Position numbers and translations under genes: made by a program
The notes under the pieces: generated by a model
The model's input: only the letters and a program-made list of their open reading frames with translations
What the model was told of the DNA's origin: nothing
The model's database searches: none
Part shown: piece by piece, positions 1 to 54,772 of the stretch
Numbering within the stretch: the stretch's first letter is position 1
How the letters are laid out: the number at the start of each line of letters is the position of its first letter
Assembly (NCBI GenBank): GCA_016283095.1
Contig: JAEEMG010000062.1
Span: 4,694 to 68,693, forward strand
Direction of reading: 5' to 3'
DNA: 64,000 nucleotides
Source: Paludibacteraceae bacterium
Lineage (GTDB): Bacteria; Bacteroidota; Bacteroidia; Bacteroidales; Paludibacteraceae

Positions 1-66
1 ATCCAACGTAATCCAAGAAGCAGAAGCGCAAAACTACGTGTCGCAGAAAAAATAGGAGGAGAATAG
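1..66 (+). CDS. rsmH: RsmH (MraW) 16S rRNA m4C1402 methyltransferase, 3' end only (gene begins upstream of window)
   Basis: Frame 1 reads IQRNPRSRSAKLRVAEKIGGE*. NPRxRSAKLRxAEK is the usual RsmH C-terminus, and the position just before ftsL/ftsI is the canonical dcw position. Confidence 0.55.
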   Translation: MQRNPRSRSAKLRVAEKIGGE

Positions 67-67
67 T

Positions 68-394: not shown

Positions 395-400
395 TTGGGT

Positions 401-2524: not shown

Positions 2525-2531
2525 TTGGCTT

Positions 2532-3983: not shown

Positions 3984-3990
3984 AGAGATT

Positions 3991-19405: not shown

Positions 19406-19419
19406 AAAACGAGTCGTAT

Positions 19420-35389: not shown

Positions 35390-36048
35390 TAAAGTCTCTT
35401 TGTCTAAAAGTGATCTATAAATGGATTTGTAGACCTGTATTGAAATACTTTGTTGGTGTACAGTATCCAGATTGCTCATTTCTTAAGGATGAGAAGCAAT
35501 TCGTGATAATCGCAAACCACAACAGCCATCTTGACACGTTGAGCCTGTTGACATCGTTGCCTGGCGATATTTTGTGGAGAGTGCGTCCGGTGGCTGCCCA
35601 AGACTATTTTGGCAACACCAAGTTGAAGGCGATGTTGAGCAATTTCTTCATCAACACTCTGCTTATCAACCGTCGACCTAAAAAAGAGGACGGAAAGAGT
35701 AATGCTATTGAAAAAATGATGGAGGCTGTCGACGAGGGGTGTTCGCTGATCCTTTTTCCTGAAGGAAGCCGTGGTGAACCCGAGCAGATGAGCAAGATGA
35801 AGTCTGGAGTCGCACGATTGTTGTCGCAGCGACCAGGTCTGAAATATATACCAGTGTTTATGACAGGTATGGGCACGTCACTTCCGAAAGGAGGAATGGT
35901 GGTGCTTCCATACAATGCCACACTTCACTTCGGAGAACCTACACTTCCTGAGAGTGACGATTCGTATGCTATCATGGATCAGATAGAAAAGACTTTCGCT
36001 GACATGGTAGATAAGTACGGAATCAAAGAAGAAGAGGATGACGATTAA
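35374..36048 (+). CDS. Lysophospholipid (1-acyl-sn-glycerol-3-phosphate) acyltransferase family protein
   Basis: HxxxxD motif (NHNSHLD) and FPEGSRG motif. 16-nt overlap with the upstream gene. Confidence 0.85.
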   Translation: MEKPLIKSLCLKVIYKWICRPVLKYFVGVQYPDCSFLKDEKQFVIIANHNSHLDTLSLLTSLPGDILWRVRPVAAQDYFGNTKLKAMLSNFFINTLLINRRPKKEDGKSNAIEKMMEAVDEGCSLILFPEGSRGEPEQMSKMKSGVARLLSQRPGLKYIPVFMTGMGTSLPKGGMVVLPYNATLHFGEPTLPESDDSYAIMDQIEKTFADMVDKYGIKEEEDDD

Positions 36049-36161
36049 AATTCTGCTCTTTGTCGATGTTGGAGAATAAAAGATAAAGTTTTATCTTTGC
36101 AAAGAAACAATCTCAGGAGGCTGGGATTGAGGAAAACATTATAAAAAGTAATGGTACAAAA

Positions 36162-37022
36162 ATGGAAAAAGAAGAAAGAACAGAGATGCTGAATCCGTTC
36201 TGTGATGAAGGATTCAAACGGATTTTTGGAGATAAAATCCTGTTGATGGATTTTCTAAACTCATTTGTAGACGCCGGTTCTCCAATTGTGGATTTAACGT
36301 ATGAGAACAAGGAGATGGTGTCGGTGGAGAGTGATGGTCGGACAATAATCTTTGATTTGTTTTGCAAGTTGGATAATGGCAATAATGTCATAATAGAGAT
36401 GCAGAATAAAAATCAGGATTTTTTTGTAGACAGAGCGGTATTCTACCTTTCAAGAGCAATCTCAGCGCAGGGAGAAAAAGGAAGAATATGGAAATATGGG
36501 ATTAATTCAGTAATTGGAATATTCATCACTCAGTTTAGAGTGTTCGACAACGACGATGTCCTTTCTGAGATGAAACTGATTGATCCAAAGACACATAAGA
36601 TGGTTTCTGATAAGATGCATGGTTATTTTATACAGTTGCCTAAATTCAAGAAGTCAAACAACGGATGTGTGGACCATTTTGATGAGTGGATCTACAATCT
36701 GAAAAATATGGAGCGTATGGGGAATATAGAATTCAAGGATCAGGAAGTGTTTGAGAGATTATGGAATCTTTCAAACTGCTCTATGCTTTCCATAGAGGAA
36801 CGCCGCAAATACGAACGCAGCCTGAAAGCCTATCGTGATTATGTGAACCAATTGGATTTTGCAAAGGCTGAGGGAAGAGCGGAAGGTATTGCAGAGGGAA
36901 GAGCGGAAGGAAGAGCGGAAGAACGATCTTTCATGATATCAATGTTAAAGAAGAAAGGAATGAGTGATGAAGAAATCGCATATTATCTGGACATTGATAT
37001 AGAGGAAGTGAAATCTGTGTAG
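36162..37022 (+). CDS. Rpn-family recombination-promoting nuclease / putative transposase (PD-(D/E)XK)
   Basis: N-terminal FCDEGFKRIFG and IIFDLFC...VIIEMQN pattern of the Rpn/YhgA-like family. C-terminal AEGRAEGIAEGRAEGRAEE repeat typical of the family. TAtcTTTG box at 36092-36099. Confidence 0.75.
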   Translation: MEKEERTEMLNPFCDEGFKRIFGDKILLMDFLNSFVDAGSPIVDLTYENKEMVSVESDGRTIIFDLFCKLDNGNNVIIEMQNKNQDFFVDRAVFYLSRAISAQGEKGRIWKYGINSVIGIFITQFRVFDNDDVLSEMKLIDPKTHKMVSDKMHGYFIQLPKFKKSNNGCVDHFDEWIYNLKNMERMGNIEFKDQEVFERLWNLSNCSMLSIEERRKYERSLKAYRDYVNQLDFAKAEGRAEGIAEGRAEGRAEERSFMISMLKKKGMSDEEIAYYLDIDIEEVKSV

Positions 37023-37151
37023 GGGTATTTGTGAAGACGGAATTGTTTCCATTTTTTTTTATTTATGTCATTTCATGATTTTCTTCTTGTTGTTGGTCAA
37101 ATGTGAATTTGTTTGCAAAAAGACAAAAATCTTAAAACATCAATGAAATTA

Positions 37152-37182
37152 TTTGTGAAAATAAAAATATAATATATTTTTG
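37152..37182 (+). promoter_or_regulatory. Bacteroidetes-type promoter (-33 TTTG, 19-nt spacer, -7 TAttTTTG) upstream of the leader RNA and seven-gene operon
   Basis: TTTG at 37152-37155 and TATTTTTG at 37175-37182. Same spacing as the promoter at 33694-33724. Confidence 0.6.
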
Positions 37183-37189
37183 TGATGTC

Positions 37190-37484
37190 TCAAGCAGAAG
37201 CCCAATGGGTGGAGTTTGGGGTAGACATATTGAAAAGCGTTTACTTGACGCTTTGTTCTTGACGTTTCAGAATCTCGCAAATTCTAAATTCCTATCAAAA
37301 GCAAAGCAACAGTAGATGTCTATGGGTGTGTTTGTATGGCACTTGGTGCACCTCGTAAAAGGGGTGTGCTAAGTATTTATATAGGCATAGCGTGGGCTTC
37401 TGCGTTGCTCGTTCTAGATAGGAAGGCAATGCGAGAGCCTTGAAACGTGGGACGAGCGATAAGCACGATTCCCACGCTTTTTTT
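37190..37484 (+). ncRNA. Candidate structured leader / riboswitch-like RNA ending in an intrinsic terminator
   Basis: Long-range 11-bp helix 37194-37204 / 37393-37403. 8-bp helix 37221-37228 / 37316-37323. Hairpin 37234-37254. 14-bp hairpin 37341-37354 / 37361-37374 with four G-U pairs (plus-strand specific). Terminator stem 37446-37452 / 37470-37476 followed by T7. No convincing ORF. Confidence 0.5.
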
Positions 37485-37553
37485 GTGTCTGGGAGGAAAA
37501 AAGGAAATTTAATATTTGAGTTCGCTATTGGGGGTTGTGGCGATGGTTTTGTT

Positions 37554-38909
37554 ATGAAGATTAATACAACGTATTTGTTAGGTGTAATGACAATAGAAAG
37601 TATGGTTTTCTGTGCATCGTGTGTTGACAATCATGCTTCGTATTGTTATGAAGATTGGAATACTAAATTAGTTGAATATCACAACTCGAAATTTTCAAAT
37701 GACGAGGAAAAGTTGAAAGAAGAGTTGGATGTTTATGTAGACTATTCAACTTGTATGAAACAAGCCAATGATGATCCTAATGGATTATTTAAACAACTTC
37801 TATTATCTCCAATACTTGGTGCTCATCCAAATTATTATTCCATAAAAGGTAACCAAATTCAGCAGGAATCTGAAGATCCTAATATTTTGTTTAGGAGTAT
37901 TGTAGAAACTCCGTATGCAGATTTGAAGGGAGCTATAGAAAAGATGGCTTCCTCAAATTGTGAATCTGTGTTGATGACAGATGGAGAATATGTATTGAAG
38001 GATACTAAGGCTAATTGGAATGAAGGGACTCCTTATATGGCGGAGGCAATGAAAAAATGGTTGCTTCGTGGTCATGACATCCATATTTTAGTTGAACCAT
38101 ATATTGAGTCATTCAAAGGCAAAAACTATAACAAAAAAAGATTTTATATCTTTTTTACAGATCGATGTCTAAAGAATAATGTTTATTCTAAAATTGCAGA
38201 TAGAATCAATAAAGATAATATGAAAATTGATTCTTATCATATTTCATGTTCTCATGTAGGCTTAAAAAAACAAAATGGTACATCTTCTGTTGCTAGTCAG
38301 ATGTTAGCGGCTAAAATCACACCAAAAGAATCATTTGAGATTCAAGAGTGGCAAGTATATTGGAAAACTATAGAGGAGTCGATGGTATATAGTAGTTTTG
38401 ATCCTATTACTGGTGCTCCTATGGAAAATAGTGCACAAGTTATATCTGGACTTAGTCTTGCTGAAGATTGTTTGCTTGGATTCAAAATTAAAGATGTGGA
38501 TATGAAAGCATACTCAATATCTGATGAATTTTCTGTGTTTGCAGATTCTTCATTATTCAAGTACATTGGAGAAGCGTTCGAGGTTAAAGATTTTGTCACA
38601 CTTGACTCAAAAGAATTAAGTCAGGGAAACATATCTGTAATGTTTGCAAATCAGAATCAATACAATCCTTTGTTTATGATTAGTTCTCCATATAATTACC
38701 TTAGATTAGACTTTTATATTGGAACTGCAGAATCAACTATAGATAGTTATAAAAATATGTTCTGCTTTGACGATATCACAAAACCAGAACAACCGAATAC
38801 ATCTGTCTACGAAAGCATCAAGCAGTGTATGGACGATGCAGATATTTTGAGTAAGGTGAATGGTGCTCATTTGTATTCAATATATGTACAGTCTCCAAAT
38901 CGTGAATAA
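37554..38909 (+). CDS. Putative lipoprotein with vWA-like domain (operon gene 1)
   Basis: Signal peptide plus lipobox (MKINTTYLLGVMTIESMVFCASC). vWA-like strand/motif order VYVDYSTCM ... ADLKGAIEKM ... VLMTDGE ... IHILVEP. ATG at 37554 lies downstream of the leader terminator. Confidence 0.55.
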   Translation: MKINTTYLLGVMTIESMVFCASCVDNHASYCYEDWNTKLVEYHNSKFSNDEEKLKEELDVYVDYSTCMKQANDDPNGLFKQLLLSPILGAHPNYYSIKGNQIQQESEDPNILFRSIVETPYADLKGAIEKMASSNCESVLMTDGEYVLKDTKANWNEGTPYMAEAMKKWLLRGHDIHILVEPYIESFKGKNYNKKRFYIFFTDRCLKNNVYSKIADRINKDNMKIDSYHISCSHVGLKKQNGTSSVASQMLAAKITPKESFEIQEWQVYWKTIEESMVYSSFDPITGAPMENSAQVISGLSLAEDCLLGFKIKDVDMKAYSISDEFSVFADSSLFKYIGEAFEVKDFVTLDSKELSQGNISVMFANQNQYNPLFMISSPYNYLRLDFYIGTAESTIDSYKNMFCFDDITKPEQPNTSVYESIKQCMDDADILSKVNGAHLYSIYVQSPNRE

Positions 38910-38938
38910 TTCAATTTTAATTAATAAACTTTAATATT

Positions 38939-39385
38939 ATGAGTAGCTTGATTTTAGGTATTAAACCATTGTTTGTCTTTTTGTGGACAGTAATCATACC
39001 TGACAAAATTTTGACATTGCAGCAATTGCAGGATGTCCAGCAGAACGAGTTTTTTTTAGCGGTTTGTTGGTCTTTAACGGCTTTGTTAATTTCATTAATA
39101 GTGTCTAATTTAATTGCTTTTCAAGGTGGAGATGATAAATCATACATAAAGAGAAGAGTTTGGCATATTATAATAGGAGTCCTATCTGTTATATATTTCT
39201 ACTATTTCTATTATTTGGAAGTTATTCCAAGAATAGCTAATCCAGGATTCCAGTCGATGTTACATAAGACAAATTTGCAGTGCTTGGGTGTCACTTCAAG
39301 TGTGTATATTGTTGTAGGTCTAATCATTATGTTGTGCTGTAGACGTTCTAAATTTGGCTCTATTTTAGGTAAAGTAAAAGATTGA
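38939..39385 (+). CDS. Small 4-TM membrane protein (operon gene 2)
   Basis: 148 aa with four hydrophobic helices. 29 nt after gene 1 and 4 nt before gene 3. Confidence 0.55.
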   Translation: MSSLILGIKPLFVFLWTVIIPDKILTLQQLQDVQQNEFFLAVCWSLTALLISLIVSNLIAFQGGDDKSYIKRRVWHIIIGVLSVIYFYYFYYLEVIPRIANPGFQSMLHKTNLQCLGVTSSVYIVVGLIIMLCCRRSKFGSILGKVKD

Positions 39386-39389
39386 TATT

Positions 39390-40982
39390 ATGGCAGATTT
39401 TTTTGTTCTAGGTATAGGTGGTACTGGAATGCGTTGTATCGAAAGTCTCATTCATTTATGTGCAATGGGAATGTTCGATGACACAACCATTCATCTTCTT
39501 GCTCTAGATACCGATAAAAATAACGGTAATTTTAAGAGACTAAAAGATCTTAAAGATGCTTATGTAAAAGCAAAAGGAGGAAAAAATCCTTTATCAAAAA
39601 CGTTTTTCTCTGCGGCTATTGAGTACTATGAATTTAGCCCAAACTATCAGAGCAATAGCAATTTTGTCGAGAGATTTGACTATACAATTACACAGCAAAA
39701 GAACAGGCATAGATCAGATCTTGCTGATTTAGTATTGACAGAAAATGTTGAGAAGTTCAATCTTGATCACGGATATAGAGCACAAACACATCTTGGATCA
39801 ATGATGATGTATCATTCCATTGTCGAGATGGCAGATAAGGATTGTGATTTGACCAAGTTCCTTGACAAATTCGCTCAAAGTGCCAAAAATGGAGCTAAAA
39901 TGTTCATTTTAGGATCAGTTTTTGGAGGAACAGGGGCGTCTTCAATTCCTATTATTCCATTAGCATTCAAGGATACAATCGCAAAGAGAAGTGGTGACGT
40001 ATCTGATATCATACAAAGTGCATATTTTGGAGCTACTCTTTTGACTGCATATATTACATTTAAGACTCCTAATGAGGACCAGTTAAGGAAGGAAAAAATT
40101 GTGGCAACAAGTGATAAGTTTGATATTAATTCTCAGATTGCTATGATGTTTTATAATGCTGATCCTACAGTTCGCAATGCATACAGCAGATTTTATATGT
40201 TGGGATGCGACTCAAAATGGGATCCAATGAGTCGCCAAGAAGGAAAGATGGCTGAAACACTAACTGGAGGAGCTTCGCAGGAGAACGATTCACATTATAT
40301 TGAACTTATGGCTGCGTGTGCTGCTTTGGATTTTTATAAAACAGATGAAGCAACATTAAAGAAAACTAATGACGGACCACAATATCTTTATAGAGCAGTA
40401 GATGAGTCTGGAAAACTTGATTTTCAAGATTTTGTTGATACAGAAGATGAGAAATCTTTTGCTCAAAGATTCGGCACGTTGATTGCTTTTTCTTTGTTCT
40501 GTAATGGAGATGATGATTTTGTGTCAAAAATCCAGGAAAAAAAGCATGTTGAAATTCAAGATTTTGGAGAAATTGACGTCAATCAAATAAAGTATCTAAA
40601 ACAGTATTTTGAATTATTTCATTGGAAAAAAACGGACAATTTGAAGGACGGTGAAGGTTGGCTTCGTCAGCTTCATCGTTCTGCAGGAGGTTCGGATAAG
40701 TTTTTGTTTAATCAGAATCTATTTTCCCCAACTACTCAAAAGGAGTTGATGGGATTAAAATGGAATAAAGAATTATATCGTTCTGAAGGACTTGGTAAAG
40801 ACAATAAATACGATTATGGTCTTGTCGGTTTGGGACTCGGAGGGTCAAAATTCGATGAGTTCAAAAAGAAATTTATTGAATACTACAAAAAAGGAGATAA
40901 AGGTCAGAGTGAGAATAAGGGAGAACAGTTATACAAACTTGTTTTTGATACTCTTGCTTCATTGTATAAATTTGAAAAATAA
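39390..40982 (+). CDS. Tubulin/FtsZ-superfamily GTPase-like protein, distant (Tubulin_2 / FtsZ-like-1 type) (operon gene 3)
   Basis: N-terminal beta-strand plus Gly loop FFVLGIGGTGMRC (T1-like, 39411-39428). Second loop ILGSVFGGTGASSIPI (tubulin signature GGTG[SA]x, 39924-39941). Intervening DHGYRAQTHLG (T3-like). About 170-residue spacing, as in FtsZ/tubulin. Confidence 0.65.
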   Translation: MADFFVLGIGGTGMRCIESLIHLCAMGMFDDTTIHLLALDTDKNNGNFKRLKDLKDAYVKAKGGKNPLSKTFFSAAIEYYEFSPNYQSNSNFVERFDYTITQQKNRHRSDLADLVLTENVEKFNLDHGYRAQTHLGSMMMYHSIVEMADKDCDLTKFLDKFAQSAKNGAKMFILGSVFGGTGASSIPIIPLAFKDTIAKRSGDVSDIIQSAYFGATLLTAYITFKTPNEDQLRKEKIVATSDKFDINSQIAMMFYNADPTVRNAYSRFYMLGCDSKWDPMSRQEGKMAETLTGGASQENDSHYIELMAACAALDFYKTDEATLKKTNDGPQYLYRAVDESGKLDFQDFVDTEDEKSFAQRFGTLIAFSLFCNGDDDFVSKIQEKKHVEIQDFGEIDVNQIKYLKQYFELFHWKKTDNLKDGEGWLRQLHRSAGGSDKFLFNQNLFSPTTQKELMGLKWNKELYRSEGLGKDNKYDYGLVGLGLGGSKFDEFKKKFIEYYKKGDKGQSENKGEQLYKLVFDTLASLYKFEK

Positions 40983-40988
40983 TAGATT

Positions 40989-43900
40989 ATGTCAACAAAA
41001 GCACTTTTGATAGGTAGCACAAGTGGAGCTGCTGCAAGCGGACAGGGCCAATGGCATGTCTATGATAAAATTACATCTTTCATCGAAGGCATCAAAGCTG
41101 GTGTTTTGAAAGAAGGTGAGACTTTGGATGTTAAGAAGGTAGAGACTCTTATCTCGGGTATGCCAACTCCATGGGCTAGAGCTAAATTGTTTGGTTTGGC
41201 TTTTAAGCCAGTCACTGATAGCAAGAACAATAATACTGTAATCACTAAGTATTACGAACAGCTAATTGAAGAATGGCGTGGATTAATTACTCTTTTAGCT
41301 CTTTATGCTGATACAGACAGAATAAAGATTTCTGAACCAGTGGAAATGGATACAAATGCAGGTGTTTATGATATTACTGCTGCATTTGGACGCATGCTTT
41401 TTGATGATCGCAGTTTATGGTGCGACCAGGATGCATTGGAGAAAGACAAAAATGCTCAGCCTTTTATTCATTTGATTTATTACAAGGGTAAATTGGTTGG
41501 AGGAACATCTCCTTATACCGGTGTGTTTACAGGAGTATGTTACGATAAACTTGATTCTACCGATATTTCAGCTTGGTACAAAGACGGTAAGTTCCAGGAT
41601 CCTACTAAGCATCTAAATTCTGATCAATTACAGAAATTGTATCTATTTGTTCTCAATCTTTCAGAAAATGTAGAGAGTTTTGTGAATAAGATTTATGGTA
41701 CAGATGGTGATACCAGAAAAGTCGCCTTAAATAACTTTATTGAACAACTAAAGATCTGGAAAAAAGAGATAGAGAATAAGGGCTCAAATCTTCAAGATAA
41801 TGGACCTATTGCTAAACTTTCAGGACTTTCAGTTCCGTTCTCGTTGTTGTTTAAAAGTGATGTTCCTGTTTGCCTAAAGACAGATGGTTCATTCTCTTTC
41901 TCATTTGAGAATGGTGCAGAAAAACTTAATGACATACAAGAAATCTTAAATGATTCTGATTGGGTATTGGGTTGGACTGAAAATAGTGATGAAATGAATA
42001 AACTTTCAGATGCTCCAGTATATTATTTGAAGGTTAATAATATTGAAGATAATTCATCTGCGTATTTTACAGTTCCTTTGTCTCAGAAGGGTATTTCCAT
42101 CTTTAGAAATTGTCTTTCTAGTGTTTTAGGATATAGCACAGAAGGAAAGTCAAAGATGGTAGGTAGAATATCGGGTGATATGTTAGCAGTCTCAATGACT
42201 ATTGAGATTGATGGAAAACAGGTTGCTCTAAACCAAAAAGAATACAAGATTGACTGGGTTTGTGGCTTGGGTAAGGTTATTGTGTGGCCAAACTTTATGT
42301 CATCTAATTGGAACAAGTATTATTTGTATTCTGAATATACTCGTGTCGCACAAGAACAGTTTGATCCTTTTTTCTTTGATTTGACAAAAAATGATAAGAT
42401 TATTAAGGATAGACATAACAATTTCTTAACAGCACGTTATGTATATGATCCATCAGAAACAAAACTTGTTGATATAAATCATTTGGTAGAGTATCCTAAT
42501 GATTGCAGTGAAGAAAAAGCAAAGTATAATATATGGAATTCCGACAAACCTTTTGGTGGGTTGATTGCATATACTTCAGAGAACGGCAAAGAAAAAAATG
42601 CTGGATATTTGATTGTACGTCATGATCAAGTAAAGGACTTGTCGAACGATGCAATAATGGATACGGCTGAGGTAGGAATAGATTTCGGAAGCAACAATAC
42701 ATGTATATACTACAAGATGTCTTCACAGAATGATCCTAAACCGATAGAGTTTAAAAATTTTAGAGCAGTTTTGGTTGGTAAAGAGAATAACAATCCTCAC
42801 TCAAATGCAAATGCAGATGAGTTATTCTTTTTCACTAATTATGTTGTGTCAAACGGACAGTTCAAGTCTTGGTTGCATGAACATGATTCTCAATATGTAA
42901 GTAATAATTCTGCTGCAGAAATTGCAGGAGGAGTTCCTGTTAATCGTCCAAATGTTCAGGTTGTGGATATGGACGAGTATGCTATTACTACTCAGGTAGG
43001 AAAGTTGAACTACAACATGAAGTGGCTTAACGATGATGCTGGATTGAACAAAAAGGGTGCATTCCTTAAATCGTTGTGGTTGCAAACTTGTGCGTTCTTG
43101 TATGTGAATAGAATAACACCAAACAAATTGTATTGGAGTTATCCAGGGGCAATGATGGAGTCGGATATCAACAATCTAGACAAAAGAATGGAGAATTTAA
43201 CTAAATCTTTGCCAATTTTAGGAGCAAAAGTGTCGTTGGAGGATCCAAATACAGAAGCAGAAGCTGTGTGTAAATATGCGTTATCCCAACCCTTTGGATT
43301 GTCTAATGATAATATTTTTCTAGGAATTGATGTAGGAGGAAGTACAAGTGACATATTGTTGATAGCTAAAGATCCTTCAAATGGAAATAAAGAGACTCTT
43401 CTAAATGAAAGTTCTGTAAGATTGGCTGCTGGCGTTTTCTTCGGAGCGGTTAAGAATTCAGATGGTTTTAGAAATTCATTGGTAAAGTATCATGAAAGTG
43501 CTATAAATAAAAATGTGTTTGTTTCAAACATTAAGGAGGTAATCTCGAATAAAGGAAAAGCACCATATTTCTTGAATTGTATTTTTGATCAATTGCAACC
43601 ATCTGATTATGATGATTTCTATGATTCTATTTCAGAAAATTCAAAGCAGATATTTGCTATCCCTGCTTATGTGACAGGATTATTGTTGTTCTACTCTGGA
43701 ATGTTGATCGGAAACGTTGTAAAAGAAAGAAATATAGATAGAGTTTCTCGTGTTAAGGTAATGGCTTTTGGAAAAGGAGGACGTTTGTTCCATTGGCTTA
43801 AAGCAATCTCTTCTAGAAGTATGAATAGATATTATCAGAATTGCTTGAATGCAGGTGCTGAAATTATTTCTGGTAAGACTTTTGAGGTCACGTATGAAGA

Positions 43901-44378
43901 CTCTATAGCAGATAGTTGTAAGACTGAGGTTGCTTTCGGATTATGTTCTAATAATAGTTTTGAATCTGTCGACAAAAGCGTTCTTAAATCAGATATTTGT
44001 GGCGAAGAAGGTGTGAAATACACTACTGAATCAAATGATGAGATTTCTCTTGAAGCTTCGTCTAATTTGGATGCCAAATATTTTGAAGAATTGAATCGTT
44101 TAGATTTCACAAGCACTGCGAATTTTGAAAGGTTTGTTTCTATATTTATAAAGTATGTGAGCGAAGAAACAGACATATATCGTAGTGCCGAAACAGATTT
44201 AAGAAGTGATGTGGTGTCTTTGAGAGACGATATCGCAAATTTTATAAAGAGAGACGATGAGTATAAAAAGGCGGAGGCAATAAAGAGAAATAATGGAGAG
44301 TTTGCGTTCCATCAACCGATTATTATTGCAGAAGGTGCCGCATTTTTAAGAAAGTTTATTGATAAAGTATTTGCATAA
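40989..44378 (+). CDS. Giant (1129 aa) actin/Hsp70-fold ATPase-like protein with unrecognised N-terminal half (operon gene 4)
   Basis: Phosphate-1 VGIDFGSNNTCIYY (42675-42701), YWSYPGAM, phosphate-2 FLGIDVGGSTSDILLI (43323-43352), adenosine-like VMAFGKGGRLFHW (43764-43796), all in canonical order. Residues 1-560 match nothing I recognise. Confidence 0.65.
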   Translation: MSTKALLIGSTSGAAASGQGQWHVYDKITSFIEGIKAGVLKEGETLDVKKVETLISGMPTPWARAKLFGLAFKPVTDSKNNNTVITKYYEQLIEEWRGLITLLALYADTDRIKISEPVEMDTNAGVYDITAAFGRMLFDDRSLWCDQDALEKDKNAQPFIHLIYYKGKLVGGTSPYTGVFTGVCYDKLDSTDISAWYKDGKFQDPTKHLNSDQLQKLYLFVLNLSENVESFVNKIYGTDGDTRKVALNNFIEQLKIWKKEIENKGSNLQDNGPIAKLSGLSVPFSLLFKSDVPVCLKTDGSFSFSFENGAEKLNDIQEILNDSDWVLGWTENSDEMNKLSDAPVYYLKVNNIEDNSSAYFTVPLSQKGISIFRNCLSSVLGYSTEGKSKMVGRISGDMLAVSMTIEIDGKQVALNQKEYKIDWVCGLGKVIVWPNFMSSNWNKYYLYSEYTRVAQEQFDPFFFDLTKNDKIIKDRHNNFLTARYVYDPSETKLVDINHLVEYPNDCSEEKAKYNIWNSDKPFGGLIAYTSENGKEKNAGYLIVRHDQVKDLSNDAIMDTAEVGIDFGSNNTCIYYKMSSQNDPKPIEFKNFRAVLVGKENNNPHSNANADELFFFTNYVVSNGQFKSWLHEHDSQYVSNNSAAEIAGGVPVNRPNVQVVDMDEYAITTQVGKLNYNMKWLNDDAGLNKKGAFLKSLWLQTCAFLYVNRITPNKLYWSYPGAMMESDINNLDKRMENLTKSLPILGAKVSLEDPNTEAEAVCKYALSQPFGLSNDNIFLGIDVGGSTSDILLIAKDPSNGNKETLLNESSVRLAAGVFFGAVKNSDGFRNSLVKYHESAINKNVFVSNIKEVISNKGKAPYFLNCIFDQLQPSDYDDFYDSISENSKQIFAIPAYVTGLLLFYSGMLIGNVVKERNIDRVSRVKVMAFGKGGRLFHWLKAISSRSMNRYYQNCLNAGAEIISGKTFEVTYEDSIADSCKTEVAFGLCSNNSFESVDKSVLKSDICGEEGVKYTTESNDEISLEASSNLDAKYFEELNRLDFTSTANFERFVSIFIKYVSEETDIYRSAETDLRSDVVSLRDDIANFIKRDDEYKKAEAIKRNNGEFAFHQPIIIAEGAAFLRKFIDKVFA

Positions 44379-44380
44379 TT

Positions 44381-46810
44381 GTGGAGTTTCTTTCTTTATA
44401 CATAGATAGGTACTATATCATTGGTAATATTGTATCCGCAGAGATTACAGACGATGGGTCATATAATCTTTGCGGTTACAAACCATTGCATTTATCTAAT
44501 TCTGAAGACCGAATTTGGTTGTATTTTTTTGAAGATGTATCTGCAGACATGATAACCTATGGGTTGTCAAATAAAATTCATTGTGATAATAAAGAGCTAC
44601 ACTATTTTGAAGGTAGTGTGTTTGACAATATAGTCAATAAATATTCACAATATAAGTTAAGAGGTGTCTCAAAAGATATGAGTTCCATATTTGAGGATTC
44701 AAAAATATTTGAAGACTTAAAGTCTGGATTCAATAATAAAAGGTATATAGAAACATACGTTTCTTATTCGAATGACATACCAGTTTCTGCTAAAAATTTG
44801 TTTAATGAACTATTAATAAAAAATGGTTTTGTATTAAAGCAGTATATCGCCAGAATCGAAGAATTGACCAAAGAAAAACTTTGTCATAAAGAGGATTATG
44901 TAATAGTTCTTTCAGCATGTGATGAAAACCTTAATATATTGTTATTCGATAGAGGTTTGACTTCAACAAAACAGTTGAAAGGGAAAGGTTTGGATTTGCG
45001 TCAAAAAGCACTTGTTAAATTAGCTGTATCCAATATTAACAAAACAGCACATGTTTTAAGGTCGCAGGATGAAATAGATGATGAGATTATAAGATTGATG
45101 CCATATTCGAAGATTTGGCTGACTAAACTGGATTCGTCATCAATGCCAATTAAACTTGATATAGCTTTTGCTGTAGATCCGAATACGATACATTCTCCTC
45201 AGTTAAAAAAAATAGACGTAGAAGGTTATACAAGAGATTTAATTAAAGAATTGTCTTCGTATATTCATGAATATGTTGCAAAGAATGACGTGGATGAACA
45301 TCAGATTCAGAGAGTTATACTTATCGGTGAAATATTCAATAATGATTCTTTTAGGCAAGAGGTCTTAAGTAAATATTCGTGTGCTTATAATTGCGTTTCG
45401 GTTTCTGATTTGCCATCTATAGTGTCTTATTATACTCAGATGGATTGTTCAAAGTATGAGACAGAAAATACAGCTTTTGTAACTAGAGCAAAAAAAGATC
45501 TAGAAGAGAAACACAAAAATCAGGAACTTCAATTAAGAAAAGAACAAATTTCTCTTCAATCAGAAAAAGAAAGAGATTTAGCTATTGCACAGGCAGAAGC
45601 AAGAAAACAATTTGATTCCTTTAAGAATAAATACCAAGAAGCGGCAAGAGAATTAAGATGGAAAGATGCTATTGATTTTGCAGAAAAGACGAAATGGGCA
45701 TTGGATAAGAAAGATTTAGAATACTCATCGAAAATTGCATATATCGATGGTGATATAGATGAGTATAGAAAAAAATTATCCGAGCAAGAGTATAAATTTG
45801 AAATTTTTAAGAAAGAAATTAAATTGGCTCGAGAATTCTTTGATAATCAAAATTGGGAAGATGCAATAAAACATGCAGATAAGGCTTTGGATGCAAATCC
45901 AGAAGCAGAGGACGCTAAAAGATACATTGTTGAATCTCGAAATAAAATAGCAGAGAAGGGTAAAATTAAGGAATATATCACAAGAGCAACGTTACTTCTT
46001 GGTCAGAAAAATTATGCAGAAGCTTTGGAGGAAGTCGAAGATGGTTTGAAACTCGAACGTGCTAATGATGAATTACTTTCCTTAAAAAACGAAATCACCT
46101 TAAAAGAAAACGATTTTAAGGTTAAGGTTGAGGAACTATCTGGAAGATTAGAGTCTGCAATTTTAAATAAAGAATTAGATTTGGCATTGAACATAATTGC
46201 TGAATTAATTGAATTTGACAATGCTCACTCTGCTAAATGGTTTGACAAAAAAAATGAGGTTAGAGAATTAATTAGAGATAAAGAACAGTTTGAAAATAAG
46301 CTAAAGGTTATAAAATCAGACATCGATTTAGCGTACAAGCTAAAACAATGGGAGAAGGTCCTGTCTTTATGTTCGAATTATTTGTCTAATAAGGATGATT
46401 CCGAAGTGGCTAAAATTAAAAGAGAATCAGAAGCAAGGATCGAAGAAATTAACCAAACTAATAAAATAGTTGACCTATTCGAAGAAATTGATTCTCTTAT
46501 TTCTGAAAAAAAGTACTCTATTGCAGAGAAAAAAGTAAAGTTCCTTCAGTCGGAGTATCCTGAGGAGAGAGAGCGATGCAAAAAAATGATTGGAAAAATA
46601 TTTGATTTAGAAGACGAAGAAGATCGTAAGATAAGAGATAAAAATAGAGGAAGTGAAGATAAATCCGATTCAGATGATTTCTTTAACGAAAAACCTAAAA
46701 AAAAGACAAAAGTTAACATAGATTGTTATGATGATGATTTCTTTAATGAGAAACCTCAAAAAAGAGTAAATGTAAATAAGAACAGTTCTGATGACGATTT
46801 TGATTTTTAA
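44381..46810 (+). CDS. Degenerate actin/Hsp70-fold domain fused to periodic TPR-like/coiled-coil repeats and an acidic-aromatic repeat tail (operon gene 5)
   Basis: GTG start 2 nt after the gene 4 stop. N-terminal approx. 350 aa has relics of the fold (LYIDRYYIIG, VIVLSACDENLNILLFD, RVILIGEIFNNDSFRQ). Six modules (WKDAIDFAEK, NWEDAIKHADKAL, NYAEALEEVEDGL, ELDLALNIIAEL, QWEKVLSLCSNYL, KYSIAEKKVKFL) recur every 53-64 aa. The tail has DDFFNEKPKKK / DDDFFNEKPQKR / DDDFDF. Confidence 0.55.
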   Translation: MEFLSLYIDRYYIIGNIVSAEITDDGSYNLCGYKPLHLSNSEDRIWLYFFEDVSADMITYGLSNKIHCDNKELHYFEGSVFDNIVNKYSQYKLRGVSKDMSSIFEDSKIFEDLKSGFNNKRYIETYVSYSNDIPVSAKNLFNELLIKNGFVLKQYIARIEELTKEKLCHKEDYVIVLSACDENLNILLFDRGLTSTKQLKGKGLDLRQKALVKLAVSNINKTAHVLRSQDEIDDEIIRLMPYSKIWLTKLDSSSMPIKLDIAFAVDPNTIHSPQLKKIDVEGYTRDLIKELSSYIHEYVAKNDVDEHQIQRVILIGEIFNNDSFRQEVLSKYSCAYNCVSVSDLPSIVSYYTQMDCSKYETENTAFVTRAKKDLEEKHKNQELQLRKEQISLQSEKERDLAIAQAEARKQFDSFKNKYQEAARELRWKDAIDFAEKTKWALDKKDLEYSSKIAYIDGDIDEYRKKLSEQEYKFEIFKKEIKLAREFFDNQNWEDAIKHADKALDANPEAEDAKRYIVESRNKIAEKGKIKEYITRATLLLGQKNYAEALEEVEDGLKLERANDELLSLKNEITLKENDFKVKVEELSGRLESAILNKELDLALNIIAELIEFDNAHSAKWFDKKNEVRELIRDKEQFENKLKVIKSDIDLAYKLKQWEKVLSLCSNYLSNKDDSEVAKIKRESEARIEEINQTNKIVDLFEEIDSLISEKKYSIAEKKVKFLQSEYPEERERCKKMIGKIFDLEDEEDRKIRDKNRGSEDKSDSDDFFNEKPKKKTKVNIDCYDDDFFNEKPQKRVNVNKNSSDDDFDF
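46673..46807 (+). repeat. 60-nt periodic coding repeat (gatgatttctttaa[c/t]ga[a/g]aaacct...) giving three DDFF/DDDF motifs at the C-terminus of gene 5
   Basis: gatgatttctttaa occurs at 46673 and 46733; a related gatgacgattttgatttt occurs at 46790. Confidence 0.8.
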
Positions 46811-46832
46811 CGAAATTTAAAAAATATTAAAT

Positions 46833-47411
46833 ATGGCAGATGTAATATTAAAAAAGAAGATCACTCTTCGCCGTAAGGGAGAGTGTGTTGAGTTCACTTT
46901 CGATGATAAGTTGAAGGTACAGTTGTTTTGGACTTCTGATACAGATCAGGACCTTTGTATTTTCTTTAAGAAGAAAGATGGAGGAATTGGTGGCGTATTC
47001 TCCAATGAGTACAGAGGTAAGAAGTCTGATCTTGGTTCATTAGACAAGTTTCCATTTATGCTTCATAGAGGAGATGAGAAAGATCCTACAGAAGGAAACG
47101 AGCAGATGGAGCAGGTAGATGTAAAAAATCTTGATGAGATTGATACTGCATATGTATGTGTTGTTAACTATGGTGCTGCTATTGAAGGAGAAGACGTTAC
47201 TTTTGCAAATGAAGGATGTCGTGTTGAATTGAAATCGAACACAGGAGATTATCTTGAAGTTATTGGTGATAGCGACAAGGATGGTTATGTGTTCTGTGTA
47301 TGTTCAATTAAAAATGAGGATGGAAAGAATTCGGTGACAAAGGTTGATGAGGTATACGATCTTTCTGATGCTTTTGATAAAATTCCAGGATTCTCTTTGA
47401 TCACAAATTAA
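46833..47411 (+). CDS. TerD-domain protein (operon gene 6)
   Basis: 192 aa, the size of classical TerD. The order VILKKKITLRRKGE / QLFWTSDTDQDLCIFF / HRGDEKDPTEGNEQMEQVDVKNLDEIDTAYVCVVNY / CRVELKSNTG / GYVFCVCSIKNEDG parallels the TerD pattern (SLSKG / GLGWD..DLDASAFLL / HTGDNRTGEGDGDDE.I.V.L / AFIRL / MLFGELYR). Confidence 0.7.
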   Translation: MADVILKKKITLRRKGECVEFTFDDKLKVQLFWTSDTDQDLCIFFKKKDGGIGGVFSNEYRGKKSDLGSLDKFPFMLHRGDEKDPTEGNEQMEQVDVKNLDEIDTAYVCVVNYGAAIEGEDVTFANEGCRVELKSNTGDYLEVIGDSDKDGYVFCVCSIKNEDGKNSVTKVDEVYDLSDAFDKIPGFSLITN

Positions 47412-47417
47412 TAAGAG

Positions 47418-48029
47418 ATGGTTCAGCTTAAGAGAAAAGTAACTCTAAAAGAGAAACATGAAGTTGCTTCTTCAGAGTCGATTCCTTCAGAAACAAGAAA
47501 TCAACAGGAATCTGAAAACAAGTCAAAGTCTTGGCTTCCATTTCTCTTATGTGGATTACTAATTGTAGGTGCAGGTATATATTTCTTGACACGTAATTCT
47601 AGTGGAAACGAGAAAACATACGCTTCAAATGATGAAAATGAGGGAAAAACAGAAATTAAAAACGAAGATTCTGTTATTCCTGTATCCGATGATCAACAAA
47701 GTCCTGTTGTAAGTACAACATCAGTTGTTGAAGATAAGGATATAATACCAAATGAGGTTGTAACTGCCGTTGAATCTAAAAAAGAGTCGTCAATGCCTGA
47801 CAATCCTATAATAGAGAATAAGGTATCTTCTTCTAAATCATCTACAGATGCTAGTAAAACAGAATCTGTAGTGAGATCAGAATCTATACCTGTTTCTGAA
47901 ATAGAGCTTACAGCTAAAGAGGTAATTCGAGGAAATTATGGAAATGGTCGCATTAGAAAAGACAAGTTAGGTGATCGATATTCTGAGATACAAAGTAAGG
48001 TAAATGAAATGTATCGTAAAGGATTGTAA
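47418..48029 (+). CDS. Single-pass membrane protein with Ser/Glu-rich linker and C-terminal CW_7 (Cpl-7-like) peptidoglycan-binding motif (operon gene 7)
   Basis: TM WLPFLLCGLLIVGAGIYFL. Low-complexity linker. C-terminus ELTAKEVIRGNYGNGRIRKDKLGDRYSEIQSKVNEMY resembles the CW_7 repeat consensus (VI.G.(Y/W)GNG..R...LG..Y..VQ..VN). Confidence 0.55.
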   Translation: MVQLKRKVTLKEKHEVASSESIPSETRNQQESENKSKSWLPFLLCGLLIVGAGIYFLTRNSSGNEKTYASNDENEGKTEIKNEDSVIPVSDDQQSPVVSTTSVVEDKDIIPNEVVTAVESKKESSMPDNPIIENKVSSSKSSTDASKTESVVRSESIPVSEIELTAKEVIRGNYGNGRIRKDKLGDRYSEIQSKVNEMYRKGL

Positions 48030-48030
48030 T

Positions 48031-48068
48031 AAACACCTTAGGCAGACAAAGTCTGCCTAAGGTGTTTT
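48031..48068 (+). terminator. Strong intrinsic terminator closing the seven-gene operon
   Basis: Perfect 17-bp stem aaacaccttaggcagac / gtctgcctaaggtgttt with a 3-nt loop, starting 2 nt after the stop, ending in TTTT. Confidence 0.85.
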
Positions 48069-48092
48069 AGAGTATAGCGTATGTTATAACCT

Positions 48093-48404
48093 TTGTGTTT
48101 TTTTTGCTTTCATCTTGTTCTACAACGGATCCTTATAAAAATTATTTTCTATAAGAAAATAATTGGCTCAAGAGTATTCAATGTGTTAGTAGAACATGAA
48201 TATCTCGCAAAAGCATTGGAAACGATAGAAAGCGAATTGACCGGAGATTGTGATGATTTCGCAACACTTATAGCGACATTTATATTGTCTATAGGAGGTG
48301 AGATTCGTGTGACAATAGCGTCTGGTCCAGATGGAGGACATGCGTATACTGAAGGACGTCGGTTTAATCGATTTCAGATTTTAAATGAAGATGGTCATAT
48401 ATGA
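48093..48404 (+). pseudogene. Transglutaminase-like cysteine peptidase core fragment (probable gene remnant)
   Basis: LTGDCDDFATLIATFILSIGGEIRV...GGHAYTE matches the Cys...His part of the transglutaminase-like core (G.C.DFA.L...L.R..GIP.R.V.G....HAW.E). Only about 100 aa, no good start, and an implausible N-terminus. Confidence 0.35.
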
Positions 48405-48544
48405 TTGAATCTTGATTGGCAAACTCTATATTAAGGAGGTTTGTATTTCAATGCAGCTAGAAAAAATGTTATAAATGTATAAATCGAAAATATGTAGTTA
48501 TGGTAATTAACTAATAAAATAGAAACACTAATAATACGATAAAT

Positions 48545-51500
48545 ATGGCAAAAGAACATTACAAAGGGTTGACAGACCAAGAGGTTTTGCAATCAAGAGA
48601 AAAGTATGGAGTAAACATTCTAACTCCACCTGCAGAAGAATCCATGTGGGAGAAGATTAAGAATTGTATGCATTTTTGGTTGCTAAAAGTTGATTTGGCG
48701 ATATTCATAATTGCTGCTATAATTGCATTCGCTTTGCCAATAACAGGCATATATTCCCATGAGGGTCTTTGGGTCGCTCCTGTTCTTTCTTTTGTCTTAT
48801 TTGTTCTTACATATTTTGTCGCGTATTTAGGAGGAGAATGGAATGAAGAAGATGCTGAATTTGATATTGATTCTCTATTTACAATTTTATTGTTCGCACT
48901 TTTACTTTCAGGATCAATAGCATTTTACAATGGCGTGTTCGGAGGTGTAGAAGGATGGACTCCATATCTTGAACTTGTCGGTATTGCGGTTGCTGTCCTT
49001 TTGGCAACAACTGTGGCTCATATATTAGAGTCTCAAAATGAAAAAACATTTCAAAGTTTGAACGATGTAAATGACGATACTCTCGTTAAAGTCATACGAA
49101 ATAACAATGTTTGTCAGGTTCCTCGTCGAGATATTGTTGTGGGAGATATTGTTCTGCTTGAAGCTGGAGAGGAAGTTCCTGCTGATGCAGTGATCCTAAG
49201 ATGCATGAATCTTATAATGAATGAGTCTTCGCTTACTGGAGAACCTCAATGCTCAAAAAGTACAAATCCTGATGAGTTTGATAAGAATGCCACATATCCA
49301 TCTAATCATATTATGAAAGGTTGTACGGTGATGGAGGGTGATTGCATCGCTGAGGTATTTGCAGTTGGTGACAAAACTGCCTGTGGAAAAGTGTTTGAGG
49401 CAGCACAGGTTAAAGATGGAGAAGCTACACCATTAAGTGAGAAACTTGATGAACTTGCCGGATTAATTACTAAAACAAGTTATGGTATTGCTATTCTGAT
49501 TGTGTTAGGACGTCTTATTCGTCATGCATTGATTTTGCCAGAAACAAATTATGTTTCCCTATTTGGATATCTTGGTGTTTCTTTAGTAATTGCTGGATTT
49601 ATTTATTGGGGATTGAATAAAAAGAAGAATGATGATAATGAAGAAAGTATTGAACTATGGCAGGTTATTGTATTTATGATCCTTCCTATAATTGGTATAA
49701 TACTTTATTTCGCATTAGACTCAACAGCATCTACCAATTGGCCTCTATTTATTCAATATGCTCTAGATTCCGTTATGATTGCTGTAACTTTAATTGTTGT
49801 CGCTGTTCCAGAAGGATTACCAATGGCAGTTACGTTAAGTCTTGCATTCAGCATGAAGCGTTTGATGAAACAAAACACATTACCTCGAACAATGCATGCT
49901 TGTGAAACTATGGGTGCTGTTTCTGTGATTTGCTCAGATAAAACTGGAACTTTGACTCAGAATCAAATGAAAGTTGTAGAAACAACTTTTCCTGAATTGA
50001 AAGATCAAAAACTAGGTGACGACAGATATTCGTCACTCCTAAAAGAGTGTATTTCTGTCAATACTACTGCAAATCTTGATTTTGCGGATTCTAAGAAGAT
50101 AAAGGCAATAGGAAATCCAACAGAGGGTGCGTTATTGCTTTGGCTTAATAACAATGGAGCAAATTATTTAAGTATTCGCGAATCATTGCCTGTAATTGAT
50201 CGCTTGCAATTTTCAACCGAGCTTAAGTATATGGCTACAATCGTAAATTCAGAAGTTACAAGTAAGCGAATCGTTTATGTAAAAGGAGCTCCGGATATTT
50301 TGATGGGACTTTGTGATATTTCTGAATCTGAGATGAAGAATTACAATGAAAAACTGACTGAGTATCAAAATCATGCGTATAGGACACTAGCTTTTGCTTA
50401 TAAAGAAATAAAAGATTCTGATGATATCTTTACAGATGGCAAATTGAATATCAACGATCTTAAAATGATGGGAATTGTCGGCATTTTGGATCCTGTTCGT
50501 TCTGATGTGCCTAATGCGATTTCTGAATGTTTGAATGCAGGAATTCAAGTGAAAATTGTAACTGGTGATGCCCCTGGAACAGCTAAAGAAATAGGTCGTC
50601 AACTTGGATTATGGAAAGAAGAGGATAAGGAAGAAAATTTACTCATTGGTACTGAACTTGCTGCAATGTCTGATGAAGAACTAAAAAATCGTTTGCCTAA
50701 AGTTAAAATTATTTCAAGAGCTCGTCCTAACGACAAGGAACGTGCTGTTCGTTTCTTGAAGGATCTTGATTATATTGTTGCTGTGACTGGAGACGGAACA
50801 AATGATGCTCCTGCTCTTAACGCTGCTAATGTTGGCCTATCTATGGGTGATGGTACAGCTGTTGCTAAAGAGGCTAGTGATATGACTATTATAGACAATT
50901 CATTTAGCACTATTGCAAATGCAGTGATGTGGGGCCGTTCTCTTTACAAGAACATCAAGCGTTTCATACTTTTCCAGATGACTGTAAACGTTGCAGCATG
51001 TCTAATCGTTGCAATCGGAGCATTCATTGGGGAAGAGTCGCCTTTGACTGTAACTCAAATGCTTTGGGTTAATTTGATTATGGATACGTTTGCTGCTCTT
51101 GCCTTAGCTTCATTGCCTCCTGCAAAAACAGTTATGGATGAGAAACCACGTTCTGTAAATGAACATATTCTCAAGGATATGGGAGTGGAAATCTTAGGCG
51201 TAGGTGGAATATTCACTGTAATACTTCTTGGAATTTGTGTGTATTTCCAACACACTAATATAACTTGTTTGACAGATCTTTTCGATGGAACTGCGGTGTG
51301 GGGAGACAACGATGGACTTTCTGCATACGAATTAGGCCTGTTCTTCACAATCTTTGTGATGCTTCAGTTTTGGAATTTGTTCAATGCAAAGGCATTCATG
51401 ACTTCTGATTCTGCATTTAAGGGAATTTCTTGGAAAGATACAAAATGGTTTATCATCATTGCCTTGGTAATCTTTGTTGGCCAAGTCCTTATGACTGAAA

Positions 51501-54544: not shown

Positions 54545-54772
54545 AATAGAATCATGTGTTATCATGTCGCTAAGATACAGAGTTTTGCAGATATAAAGAA
54601 GATGATGAGGCAAAAAACAGATGAAAATAAATAATAAGAATCTTGGATATAAACCGATTTGATATTATTGTTTTAGATAATGTGGATTGTGTTCAGATGG
54701 GGATAACAAATGTTGTAGATTATGATAAAGTGAAATTTATTGTTAATTTTGCAGTCCAAATTATTTGAAAAA

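Follow-up and report, generated by a model that had tools for sequence, protein, structure and literature searches.

A contig of a Paludibacteraceae bacterium (Bacteroidota; Bacteroidales; GenBank assembly GCA_016283095.1, contig JAEEMG010000062.1) carries a cassette of seven tightly packed genes, here called g1 to g7, which lie on the same strand, are separated by gaps of 2–29 nucleotides (nt) and have no internal terminator-like sites. The stretch of this contig that was analysed, referred to below as the window, is 64,000 nt long (positions 4,694 to 68,693 of the forward strand), and all coordinates are numbered from its first letter (Table 1). Our subject is the fourth gene of the cassette, g4, which encodes a large protein in two parts: a C-terminal half that is, by structural modelling, a Hsp70-type actin-fold ATPase domain, and an N-terminal half of no assignable family. 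Its upstream neighbour, g3, encodes a tubulin/FtsZ-superfamily GTPase.

An account of g4 made from the sequence alone, which we will call the original prediction, had described an open reading frame (ORF) of 1129 amino acids (aa) that includes the peptide blocks GMPTPWARAKLF and EEWRGLITLLALY in its N-terminal half and starts 6 nt after the g3 gene, and each of these particulars is confirmed by the ORF listing and the translation. The frame runs from ATG to TAA, the stop of g3 is at position 40982 and g5 starts only 2 nt past the end of g4. As an ORF of 3.4 kb within DNA of 35% GC content, and one with hundreds of full-length relatives, g4 is far beyond what could be expected of a chance reading frame.

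The g4 protein and its family

A word-indexed search with g4 found 402 relatives (clusters at 90% identity), the best 120 of which have full-length coverage and identities of 49–100%; wherever one of them carries a name it is 'hypothetical protein', and a Pfam domain is absent from all of them. When a profile was searched exhaustively against 1.84 billion cluster representatives (50% identity), 813 relatives, nearly all from Bacteroidota, scored at an expectation value (E) of 1e-3 or below and 189 at 1e-30 or below; almost every full-length relative has 1100–1490 aa and aligns from the first residue to the last. No family in Pfam, NCBIfam or PADLOC is assigned to g4, and a phmmer search with g4 against PDB sequences gave only chance-level matches, with a best E of 0.14. 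When 40 diverse members were compared with Pfam at E≤1 the matches were likewise scattered and at chance level, the only recurrent one being MutL, an actin-clan family, in four of the 40, together with a sub-threshold match to MreB_Mbl in a single member (E 0.036). Apart from that one match, no hit to the Pfam families of MreB, FtsA, ParM/StbA and PilM was obtained, and the Pfam HSP70 family (PF00012) was matched neither by g4 nor by any of the 40 members, even at E≤1. At the level of family hidden Markov models (HMMs), SrfB, the large actin-clan protein of PF07520, is also absent from the Pfam output for g4 and 47 of its relatives. The protein founds an uncharacterised family inside the actin/Hsp70 superfamily.

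The placement in that superfamily comes from a comparison of structures. An AlphaFold2 model of the whole of g4, built with 31 homologs, is moderately confident (predicted local distance difference test, pLDDT, 75; predicted template modelling score, pTM, 0.69), and with this model Foldseek found 196 matches in the PDB at E≤1e-3. Each of the top 50 is a nucleotide-binding domain of Hsp70, Hsp110, BiP or DnaK (E 6e-9 to 1e-7, probability 1.0), with no MreB, ParM or FtsA among them, and the alignments with full-length Hsp70s extend over 700 columns. In the model the domain has enlarged IB- and IIB-like insertions, and after the nucleotide-binding domain a beta-plus-helical extension of about 160 aa forms the C-terminus of the protein. 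This extension and the long alignments with full-length Hsp70s are compatible with a reduced substrate-binding domain but do not demonstrate one.

The sequence motifs of the superfamily can be placed on this model one by one (Table 1). The strand that the connect-1-like motif closes (709–718) comes after a long helix (683–706), and ahead of phosphate 2 the sequence TEAEAV, which carries E756, opens a further helix (756–766). In an alignment of 40 members that are just 24–48% identical to the query, D565, G567, S568, N570, E756, D781, G783, G784, D788, G928 and G930 are invariant, as are P719 and W936, and W716 is nearly so. In the family profile both phosphate motifs fall in register with those of one actin-family PDB chain, and the second also with that of Hsp70-family chains; hhalign sets g4 residues 759–798 on DnaK 175–209, a stretch that includes DLGGGTFD. 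Judged by this register, E756, D781 and D788 would correspond to E171, D194 and D201 of DnaK. D565, E756, D781/D788 and the glycine-rich loop of the adenosine motif, which we take to be the residues of Mg-ATP binding and hydrolysis, are all kept. On the strength of the model, then, the C-terminal half of g4 is a Hsp70-type actin-fold ATPase domain, and because the motif residues are invariant across such divergent members the domain is predicted to be catalytically competent.

One further element of this domain deserves mention. Just before the adenosine motif, residues 888–911 form a very strongly conserved, glycine-containing hydrophobic helix, IFAIPAYVTGLLLFYSGMLIGNVV, which is the sole stretch of g4 with transmembrane-like hydropathy and may be either a buried core helix or an element that contacts the membrane.

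For the N-terminal half (residues 1–556) a separate model was made from a deeper alignment, to which paralogs of a ~1300-aa clade also contributed, with a pLDDT of 79 and a pTM of 0.74. The first 59 residues are a conserved tip of low model confidence in which M1, K4–I8 and W22 are invariant, residues ~60–290 are mostly helical in the models and residues ~290–556 are beta-rich and resemble two sandwiches. Foldseek matched this region in the PDB only to generic tandem Ig-like sandwiches, namely antibody light chains (E ~2e-4, TM-score 0.2), and gave no match below E 1e-3 in BFVD, a library of viral structures. The region is always present in full-length relatives of g4 and appears from the models to be novel, with no named family and no specific solved structure to which it could be assigned.

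These results bear on most of what the original prediction had proposed. The actin/Hsp70 fold that it assigned to the C-terminal half is borne out by the uniformly Hsp70/Hsp110 character of the top 50 structural matches, and its four motifs do lie, in canonical order, on the expected actin-like elements of the AlphaFold2 model. Its view that some 560 N-terminal residues are of no known type agrees with the lack of any Pfam, NCBIfam or PADLOC family and with structural matches that are only generic. It had also held the architecture to be distinct from DnaK, MreB, FtsA, ParM and PilM, and g4 indeed finds none of these as a family HMM match or a top structural match, except that Hsp70 proteins are its top structural matches while the Hsp70 HMM is not matched; nor does g4 fall into any well-characterised family of the three collections.

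The distant relatives P0152 and P0181 have GYF_2 or double zinc-ribbon inserts at roughly residues 840–1000 of those longer proteins, and in the 1300-aa paralogous clade (P0195 and its relatives) a large extra block is found just before the TEAEAV helix. The stretch from the connect strand to phosphate 2, where these additions lie, looks like a hot spot for the acquisition of interaction modules.

The tubulin-like partner and the other cassette genes

The family of g3 is recognisable in Pfam: 19 of 19 homologs match Tubulin_2 (PF13809; best E 1e-6) and 14 of the 19 match Tubulin (PF00091), with the copy in the window scoring 16 bits against Tubulin_2, under the gathering score of 27. The G-boxes GGTG and GGTGASS are invariant across the family alignment, and Tubulin_2 is the Pfam family that we take to be the equivalent of FtsZl1. 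Of 82 related loci, ranging from Prevotella to Cytophagales, 75 have g3 on the strand of g4 and upstream of it, and in four of the seven exceptions the contig ends there. The most divergent loci, where g4 has 34–38% identity, keep from the cassette only g3 and g4, and therefore this pair is the evolutionary core of the cassette. Gene spacing and conserved adjacency together show, as read from the genomes, that g4 is co-transcribed and co-inherited with g3, and the earlier proposal that g4 is made together with the tubulin-like gene, which cited the 6-nt gap, is sustained by the conservation of the arrangement. On these grounds the two proteins may also interact physically.

Table 1. Genes, protein regions, motifs and other features of the cassette and its surroundings, by position in the window
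Feature	Position	Strand	Description
Rpn/PDDEXK_2 'transposase' gene	36162–37022	+	Directly upstream of the cassette region
Conserved structured RNA	37220–37495	+	Directly upstream of g1; ~280–320 nt
g1	37554–38909	+	Predicted lipoprotein, 451 aa; hydrophobic N-terminus, conserved Cys23; first cassette gene in 59 loci
g2	38939–39385	+	Small integral membrane protein; 3–4 hydrophobic segments; in 60 loci, usually 128–130 aa
g3	39390–40982	+	Tubulin/FtsZ-superfamily GTPase, 530 aa; closest to Pfam Tubulin_2; motifs GIGGTG and GSVFGGTGASSIP
g4	40989–44378	+	1129-aa ORF
g4 residues 1–556	40989–42656	+	No assignable family; separate AlphaFold model and Foldseek
g4 residues 557–1129	42657–44378	+	Hsp70-type actin-fold nucleotide-binding domain, by AlphaFold2 and Foldseek
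g4 phosphate-1 motif	42672–42701	+	VGIDFGSNNT, residues 562–571; turn between model strands 558–566 and 570–577
g4 connect-1-like motif	43131–43154	+	YWSYPGAM, residues 715–722; first four residues close model strand 709–718
g4 phosphate-2 motif	43320–43352	+	LGIDVGGSTSD, residues 778–788; joins model strands 775–782 and 787–795
g4 hydrophobic helix	43650–43721	+	Residues 888–911
g4 adenosine motif	43764–43796	+	AFGKGGRLFHW, residues 926–936; model strand 921–927, then helix 929–934
g5	44381–46810	+	TPR protein, 809 aa; ~370-aa unassigned N-terminal domain, TPR array, charged disordered tail; in 56 loci
g6	46833–47411	+	Divergent TerD-domain protein, 192 aa, by hhalign
g7	47418–48029	+	Single-pass membrane protein; transmembrane segment ~36–60, Ser/Glu-rich linker, C-terminal CW_7; in 46 loci
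Ca2+ pump	48545–51628	+	PMCA-type calcium-translocating P-type ATPase; linked accessory gene; NCBIfam TIGR01517 equivalog
960-aa protein	51731–54613	-	FIVAR, three ricin-type beta-trefoil lectin repeats, C-terminal DUF6383
689-aa ORF	54740–56809	+	MatE (MATE transporter/flippase) fused to Cytidylate_kin2

The order g1-g2-g3-g4-g5 is kept in most related loci. In its family alignment g1 has a conserved pattern, D63-x-S65 followed by T142-D143, that has the look of a vWA/MIDAS site. The TPR assignment of g5 comes from matches in Pfam and from a family profile that matches TPR proteins of the PDB with E down to 1e-14, and the best natural PDB matches of its TPR array are the Hsp70/Hsp90 co-chaperones DNAJC3, HOP/STI1 and PP5; this likeness may be generic TPR similarity, but is suggestive beside a Hsp70-like gene. 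We also considered g5 as a second, degenerate actin/Hsp70-fold protein, as its motif-like sequences IPTYISFS and VxLLG might indicate, and rejected this, since hhalign against the g4 family gave a probability of 0.4% and only the TPR part of g5 matches the PDB.

Although the g6 of the window has no Pfam TerD match, an hhalign comparison of its family (40 sequences) with 18 bona fide TerD proteins of related cassettes gave a probability of 95% (E 6e-9, 169 columns). The CW_7 domain of g7 is matched in Pfam with E 1.9e-12, and CW_7 is a cell-wall (muropeptide)-binding repeat. The Ca2+ pump scores 549.9 bits against a TIGR01517 cut-off of 507.

Among 87 related loci a homolog of this PMCA-type pump occurs in 41, mostly just downstream and on the same strand, a conserved protein of 150–190 aa in 30, a DUF533 protein (TerB-like) in 14, and a canonical TerD in 12, mostly where g6 was undetected. 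In the ~1300-aa paralogous clade, whose members include Muribaculaceae, the genes are laid out in the same way and the slot of g6 is filled by two bona fide Pfam TerD genes. The number of canonical TerD genes in this slot is one or two across sister cassettes, and Pfam TerD genes stand at the g6 position in the loci numbered L083, L084 and L097. In L083, the region downstream of the sister cassette (18900–23100) has PRTase_2/TRSP, C-C_Bond_Lyase, StiP/PELOTA_1 and S6PP genes, which make up a Ter-associated biosynthetic module, and the region upstream of it (1–6100) has a bpMoxR ternary conflict system with a protein kinase.

Distribution, mobility and the upstream RNA

A pattern scan of one genome per species, covering 185,579 species, confirmed 214 relatives of g4, and the loci of 80 of them were fetched. 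These 80 are almost all from Bacteroidota, with carriers in Prevotella, Segatella, Phocaeicola, Porphyromonas, Muribaculaceae, Alistipes, Draconibacterium, Cytophagales and Sphingobacteriales, and the closest relative among them is that of Candidatus Scybalocola fimicaballi, at 85% identity. Cultured strains that carry the cassette include Segatella copri 1A8_2 (NZ_CP146520), Prevotella jejuni DSM 26989, Phocaeicola sartorii DSM 21941, Xylanibacter rarus 109 and Porphyromonas uenonis 60-3. Five contigs of metagenome-assembled genomes (L005, L012, L032, L033 and L036) are labelled Clostridia, Oscillospiraceae or Oscillibacter and carry a cassette of Bacteroidales type, with g1–g5, in some cases g6/g7, and a g4 that is 44–51% identical to the protein of the window, which points to either mis-binning or transfer between phyla.

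The flanks of the cassette vary between strains. Of the 87 loci about 12 have a tyrosine integrase directly upstream, L084 and L087 have an integrase and L086 has a relaxase and MobC in addition. In Bacteroidota the cassette often travels as cargo on integrative elements that bear an integrase. A phage or plasmid origin was considered and rejected, since tblastn found no relative of g4 in 50,697 GenBank phage records or 72,556 PLSDB plasmid records, and the one IMG/VR contig examined (L093), from among the ten IMG/VR contigs that alone carry a relative, is laid out like the integrase-bearing elements. Around the cassette and the pump in the window, from ~36 to 51.6 kb, the GC content is 31–39%, against 41% for the window as a whole, and within the cassette itself it is 31–37%; this low-GC block (36000–51600) is consistent with acquired DNA, and neither a tRNA nor an integrase turned up in the window.

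Directly upstream of g1 lies a conserved structured RNA, which ends in a long stem (GCGTGGG...CCCACGC) and a run of U about 60 nt before the g1 start codon. Upstream of g1 homologs its DNA is 70–86% identical, even though the proteins encoded there are just 25–50% identical. Forty base pairs are predicted, 18 of them with compensatory changes, and 96% of cells are paired compared with 40–46% in slid controls, values that none of 500 shuffles reached; Rfam 15 has no match. The RNA is also present in L004, L013, L022, L028, L029, L039, L084, L096 and L099–L178, and a further copy, in inverted orientation, is found past the Ca2+ pump in both L028 and L029.

The RNA is far more widespread than the cassette, notably in gut metagenomes. 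In a metagenome scan with 80 fetched loci it was present in 79 and the cassette in none, on which account we rejected the idea of a cassette-specific riboswitch. An ORF on the same strand typically follows 40–100 nt downstream of these metagenomic copies. The largest group of such ORFs comes from 16 loci, and the representative of this family matches NusG (UpxY-like) in Pfam; a conjugative coupling protein is one of the upstream neighbours. Probably this RNA serves cargo operons of Bacteroidales mobile elements as their leader or attenuator, a reading which in turn suggests that transcription of the cassette is controlled by termination.

Three other genes of the surroundings may be noted. An Rpn/PDDEXK_2 'transposase' gene stands upstream, the 960-aa protein on the opposite strand is probably a secreted or surface carbohydrate-binding protein, and the 689-aa ORF beyond it joins two domains in an unusual combination.

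A proposed role for g4 and its alternatives

We propose that g4 is an ATP-driven adaptor or switch for a polymer of the tubulin-like GTPase g3, and that it would act in a manner analogous to FtsA with FtsZ or to the clamp of the Hsp70 nucleotide-binding domain. The coupling of nucleotide state to partner binding would fall either to the N-terminal region of g4 or to g5, the TPR protein, and would take place at the cytoplasmic face of the inner membrane; the module as a whole might serve as a Ca2+/Ter-type device for envelope stress response or phage exclusion. The link to the envelope is based on the transmembrane segments of g2 and g7 and the CW_7 domain of the latter. That to Ca2+ and Ter is based on the TerD-like g6, the TerD genes of the sister cassettes, DUF533 in 14 loci and the pump in 41, and the pump and g6 together suggest a calcium theme for the module. 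Mobility, finally, is argued from the adjacent integrases, the relaxase and MobC of L086, the low GC content and the restriction to just 214 relatives in 185,579 species. Taken as a whole, this explanation (a two-part g4, locked to g3 in a mobile cassette, acting as adaptor or switch in an envelope module) is the best we can offer, and we hold it tentatively, with slightly less than even confidence.

Several observations weigh against this explanation. The Foldseek TM-scores of g4 are ~0.4 (on target), with a root-mean-square deviation of ~10 Å over ~480 columns, which we attribute to the large insertions of the domain. Similarity to Hsp70 or actin at the level of sequence is weak (E 0.24 to 7e-4), and phmmer and hmmsearch against the PDB gave only motif-level Hsp70 matches (E 0.24–1.3). 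In L062, L063 and L070 there is a g4 with no g3 nearby. The Ca2+ link rests on neighbours and not on g4 itself. No defence model of PADLOC-DB 2.0 matches g1–g6, g7 having a chance-level match to PD-T4-6 (E 0.008), and any association with defence genes is anecdotal, being based on the bpMoxR system beside L083. As for g1 as a vWA/MIDAS protein, neither the Pfam scan of 17 members nor the comparison of the profile with the PDB gave a vWA match, and the conserved pattern remains a lead only.

One possibility is that g4 is a filament-forming, cytomotive protein in the manner of ParM, MreB or FtsA, which together with g3 segregates or positions its own mobile element. Actin-like and tubulin-like NTPases both serve in positioning plasmid and phage DNA, the catalytic residues of the actin-fold ATPase are intact, the cassette sits on integrative mobilisable elements, and a few members have the weak, sub-threshold MreB_Mbl and MutL matches. 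However, the top structural matches are of the Hsp70/Hsp110 kind and include none of the three filament formers, nothing in the cassette can be recognised as a centromere-binding or DNA-binding protein, its products being instead a lipoprotein, membrane proteins, a CW_7 protein, TerD and, beside them, a Ca2+ pump, and the elements are integrated, with no relative on PLSDB plasmids or GenBank phages. We regard this possibility as improbable. That g4 is a bona fide Hsp70-class folding chaperone for a client encoded in the cassette seems to us very unlikely, even though the fold is that of Hsp70/Hsp110 (DnaK, BiP, Sse1; Foldseek E ~1e-8), the phosphate-1, connect, phosphate-2 and adenosine motifs follow in the same order with the equivalents of the DnaK residues E171, D194 and D201 conserved, the structural alignments run along full-length Hsp70s, and the next gene is a TPR protein with co-chaperones as its best natural matches. 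Unlike Hsp70, g4 has no detectable sequence membership of that family, its members failing to match Pfam HSP70 even at E≤1, and no recognisable substrate-binding domain or lid. Its novel region of 556 residues precedes the nucleotide-binding domain, which is not the Hsp70 order, and the domain has enlarged IB- and IIB-like insertions; no J-domain or GrpE was detected in g4 or the cassette, no J-protein or GrpE gene lies nearby, and the TPR matches of g5 are those of generic consensus-TPR similarity.

The resemblance to FtsA and FtsZ raises the question of whether g4 might be a housekeeping cytoskeletal component, used by Bacteroidota for division, shape or gliding. As in that system, the genes of an actin-fold ATPase and a tubulin-fold GTPase lie side by side, and the partners are associated with the envelope, in a membrane and cell-wall context. 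Yet g3 and g4 stand in the opposite order, the two proteins are outside the FtsA and FtsZ families, the nucleotide-binding domain is Hsp70-like and not FtsA-like, and the pair is accessory and mobile where FtsA–FtsZ is essential and universal. The distribution is sparse, with 214 relatives among 185,579 species genomes, the flanks are variable, an integrase or relaxase is a neighbour, the GC content is atypically low, and there are two paralogous clades with variable accessory genes, all of which leaves a housekeeping role hardly credible.

A comparison with described systems of related composition places our preferred explanation, the adaptor or switch, in context, and two of them, the FtsZl1 operons and the NTP-dependent conflict systems, are precedents with which it agrees. 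FtsZl1 operons, which are predicted to be membrane-associated (Makarova & Koonin, 2010, PMC2875224), share with the cassette a tubulin closest to Tubulin_2 and membrane-associated neighbours. The FtsZl1 proteins that have been described have ~900–1200 aa and are typically linked to vWA proteins, kinases and a novel GTPase (PMC2875224), whereas g3 has just 530 aa and its linkage to a vWA protein is unconfirmed. The amb2958–2961 operon of Magnetospirillum combines FtsZl1 and vWA proteins with a 1626-aa HSP70-domain protein (supplement, PMC2875224). Identity with the FtsZl1 operon of Bacteroides caccae (PMC2875224) was considered and rejected, as that is a different cassette, in which a 913-aa FtsZl1 lies beside a cysteine protease.

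Tubulin and HSP70 components also occur in NTP-dependent conflict systems that have membrane-proximal components (Kaur et al., 2020, PMC7159879). The DO-GTPase/GAP1-N2 systems among them are found in Firmicutes and Actinobacteria, with the tubulin and HSP70 themes non-overlapping (PMC7159879). Their likeness to the cassette lies in the NTP-dependent tubulin or HSP70 with membrane parts and in the zinc-ribbon and GYF inserts of distant g4 relatives, and no DO-GTPase or GAP1 domain is among the Pfam matches of the cassette proteins. Because these two domains are absent and vWA is unconfirmed, the cassette lies outside both the FtsZl1 and the DO-GTPase systems. Hsp70-like units are present in CoCoNuT systems too (PMC11090510), and no McrB or McrC domain is among the Pfam results for the cassette genes. 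With Ter clusters the likeness consists of TerD-domain proteins, DUF533 and the PRTase, C-C lyase and PELOTA genes in or beside the cassette, while TerC, TerA and TerZ were not seen in the scanned cassette genes or in the precomputed Pfam lists of related loci. We know of no described Ter cluster that has a tubulin-like and Hsp70-like core, and literature searches on this combination of genes found nothing specific.

A more speculative extension, which we think rather unlikely but set out for its consequences, is that the g3–g4 pair forms a mobile accessory 'mini-cytoskeleton'. Entry of Ca2+ would trigger it, TerD would sense the ion and the PMCA-type pump would reset the system, and the pair would remodel or seal the inner membrane and the cell wall during phage attack or envelope damage. 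If this were true, bacteria would have a counterpart of Ca2+-triggered membrane repair, and a partnership of tubulin-fold and actin-fold proteins would be known for the first time outside FtsZ–FtsA.

The actin/Hsp70 and tubulin/FtsZ superfamilies are the two great lineages of cytoskeletal NTPases and, to our knowledge, their cooperation in bacteria is known solely from FtsA and FtsZ. A role for g4 would bear on the function of FtsZl1-type tubulins, of which our literature search found no experimental study, and on the mode of action of Ter-type modules. The gene also defines a large family for which Pfam, NCBIfam and PADLOC have no model. With g3 it makes up a second, evolutionarily independent and tightly linked pair of actin-fold and tubulin-fold proteins, carried by hundreds of gut and environmental Bacteroidota.

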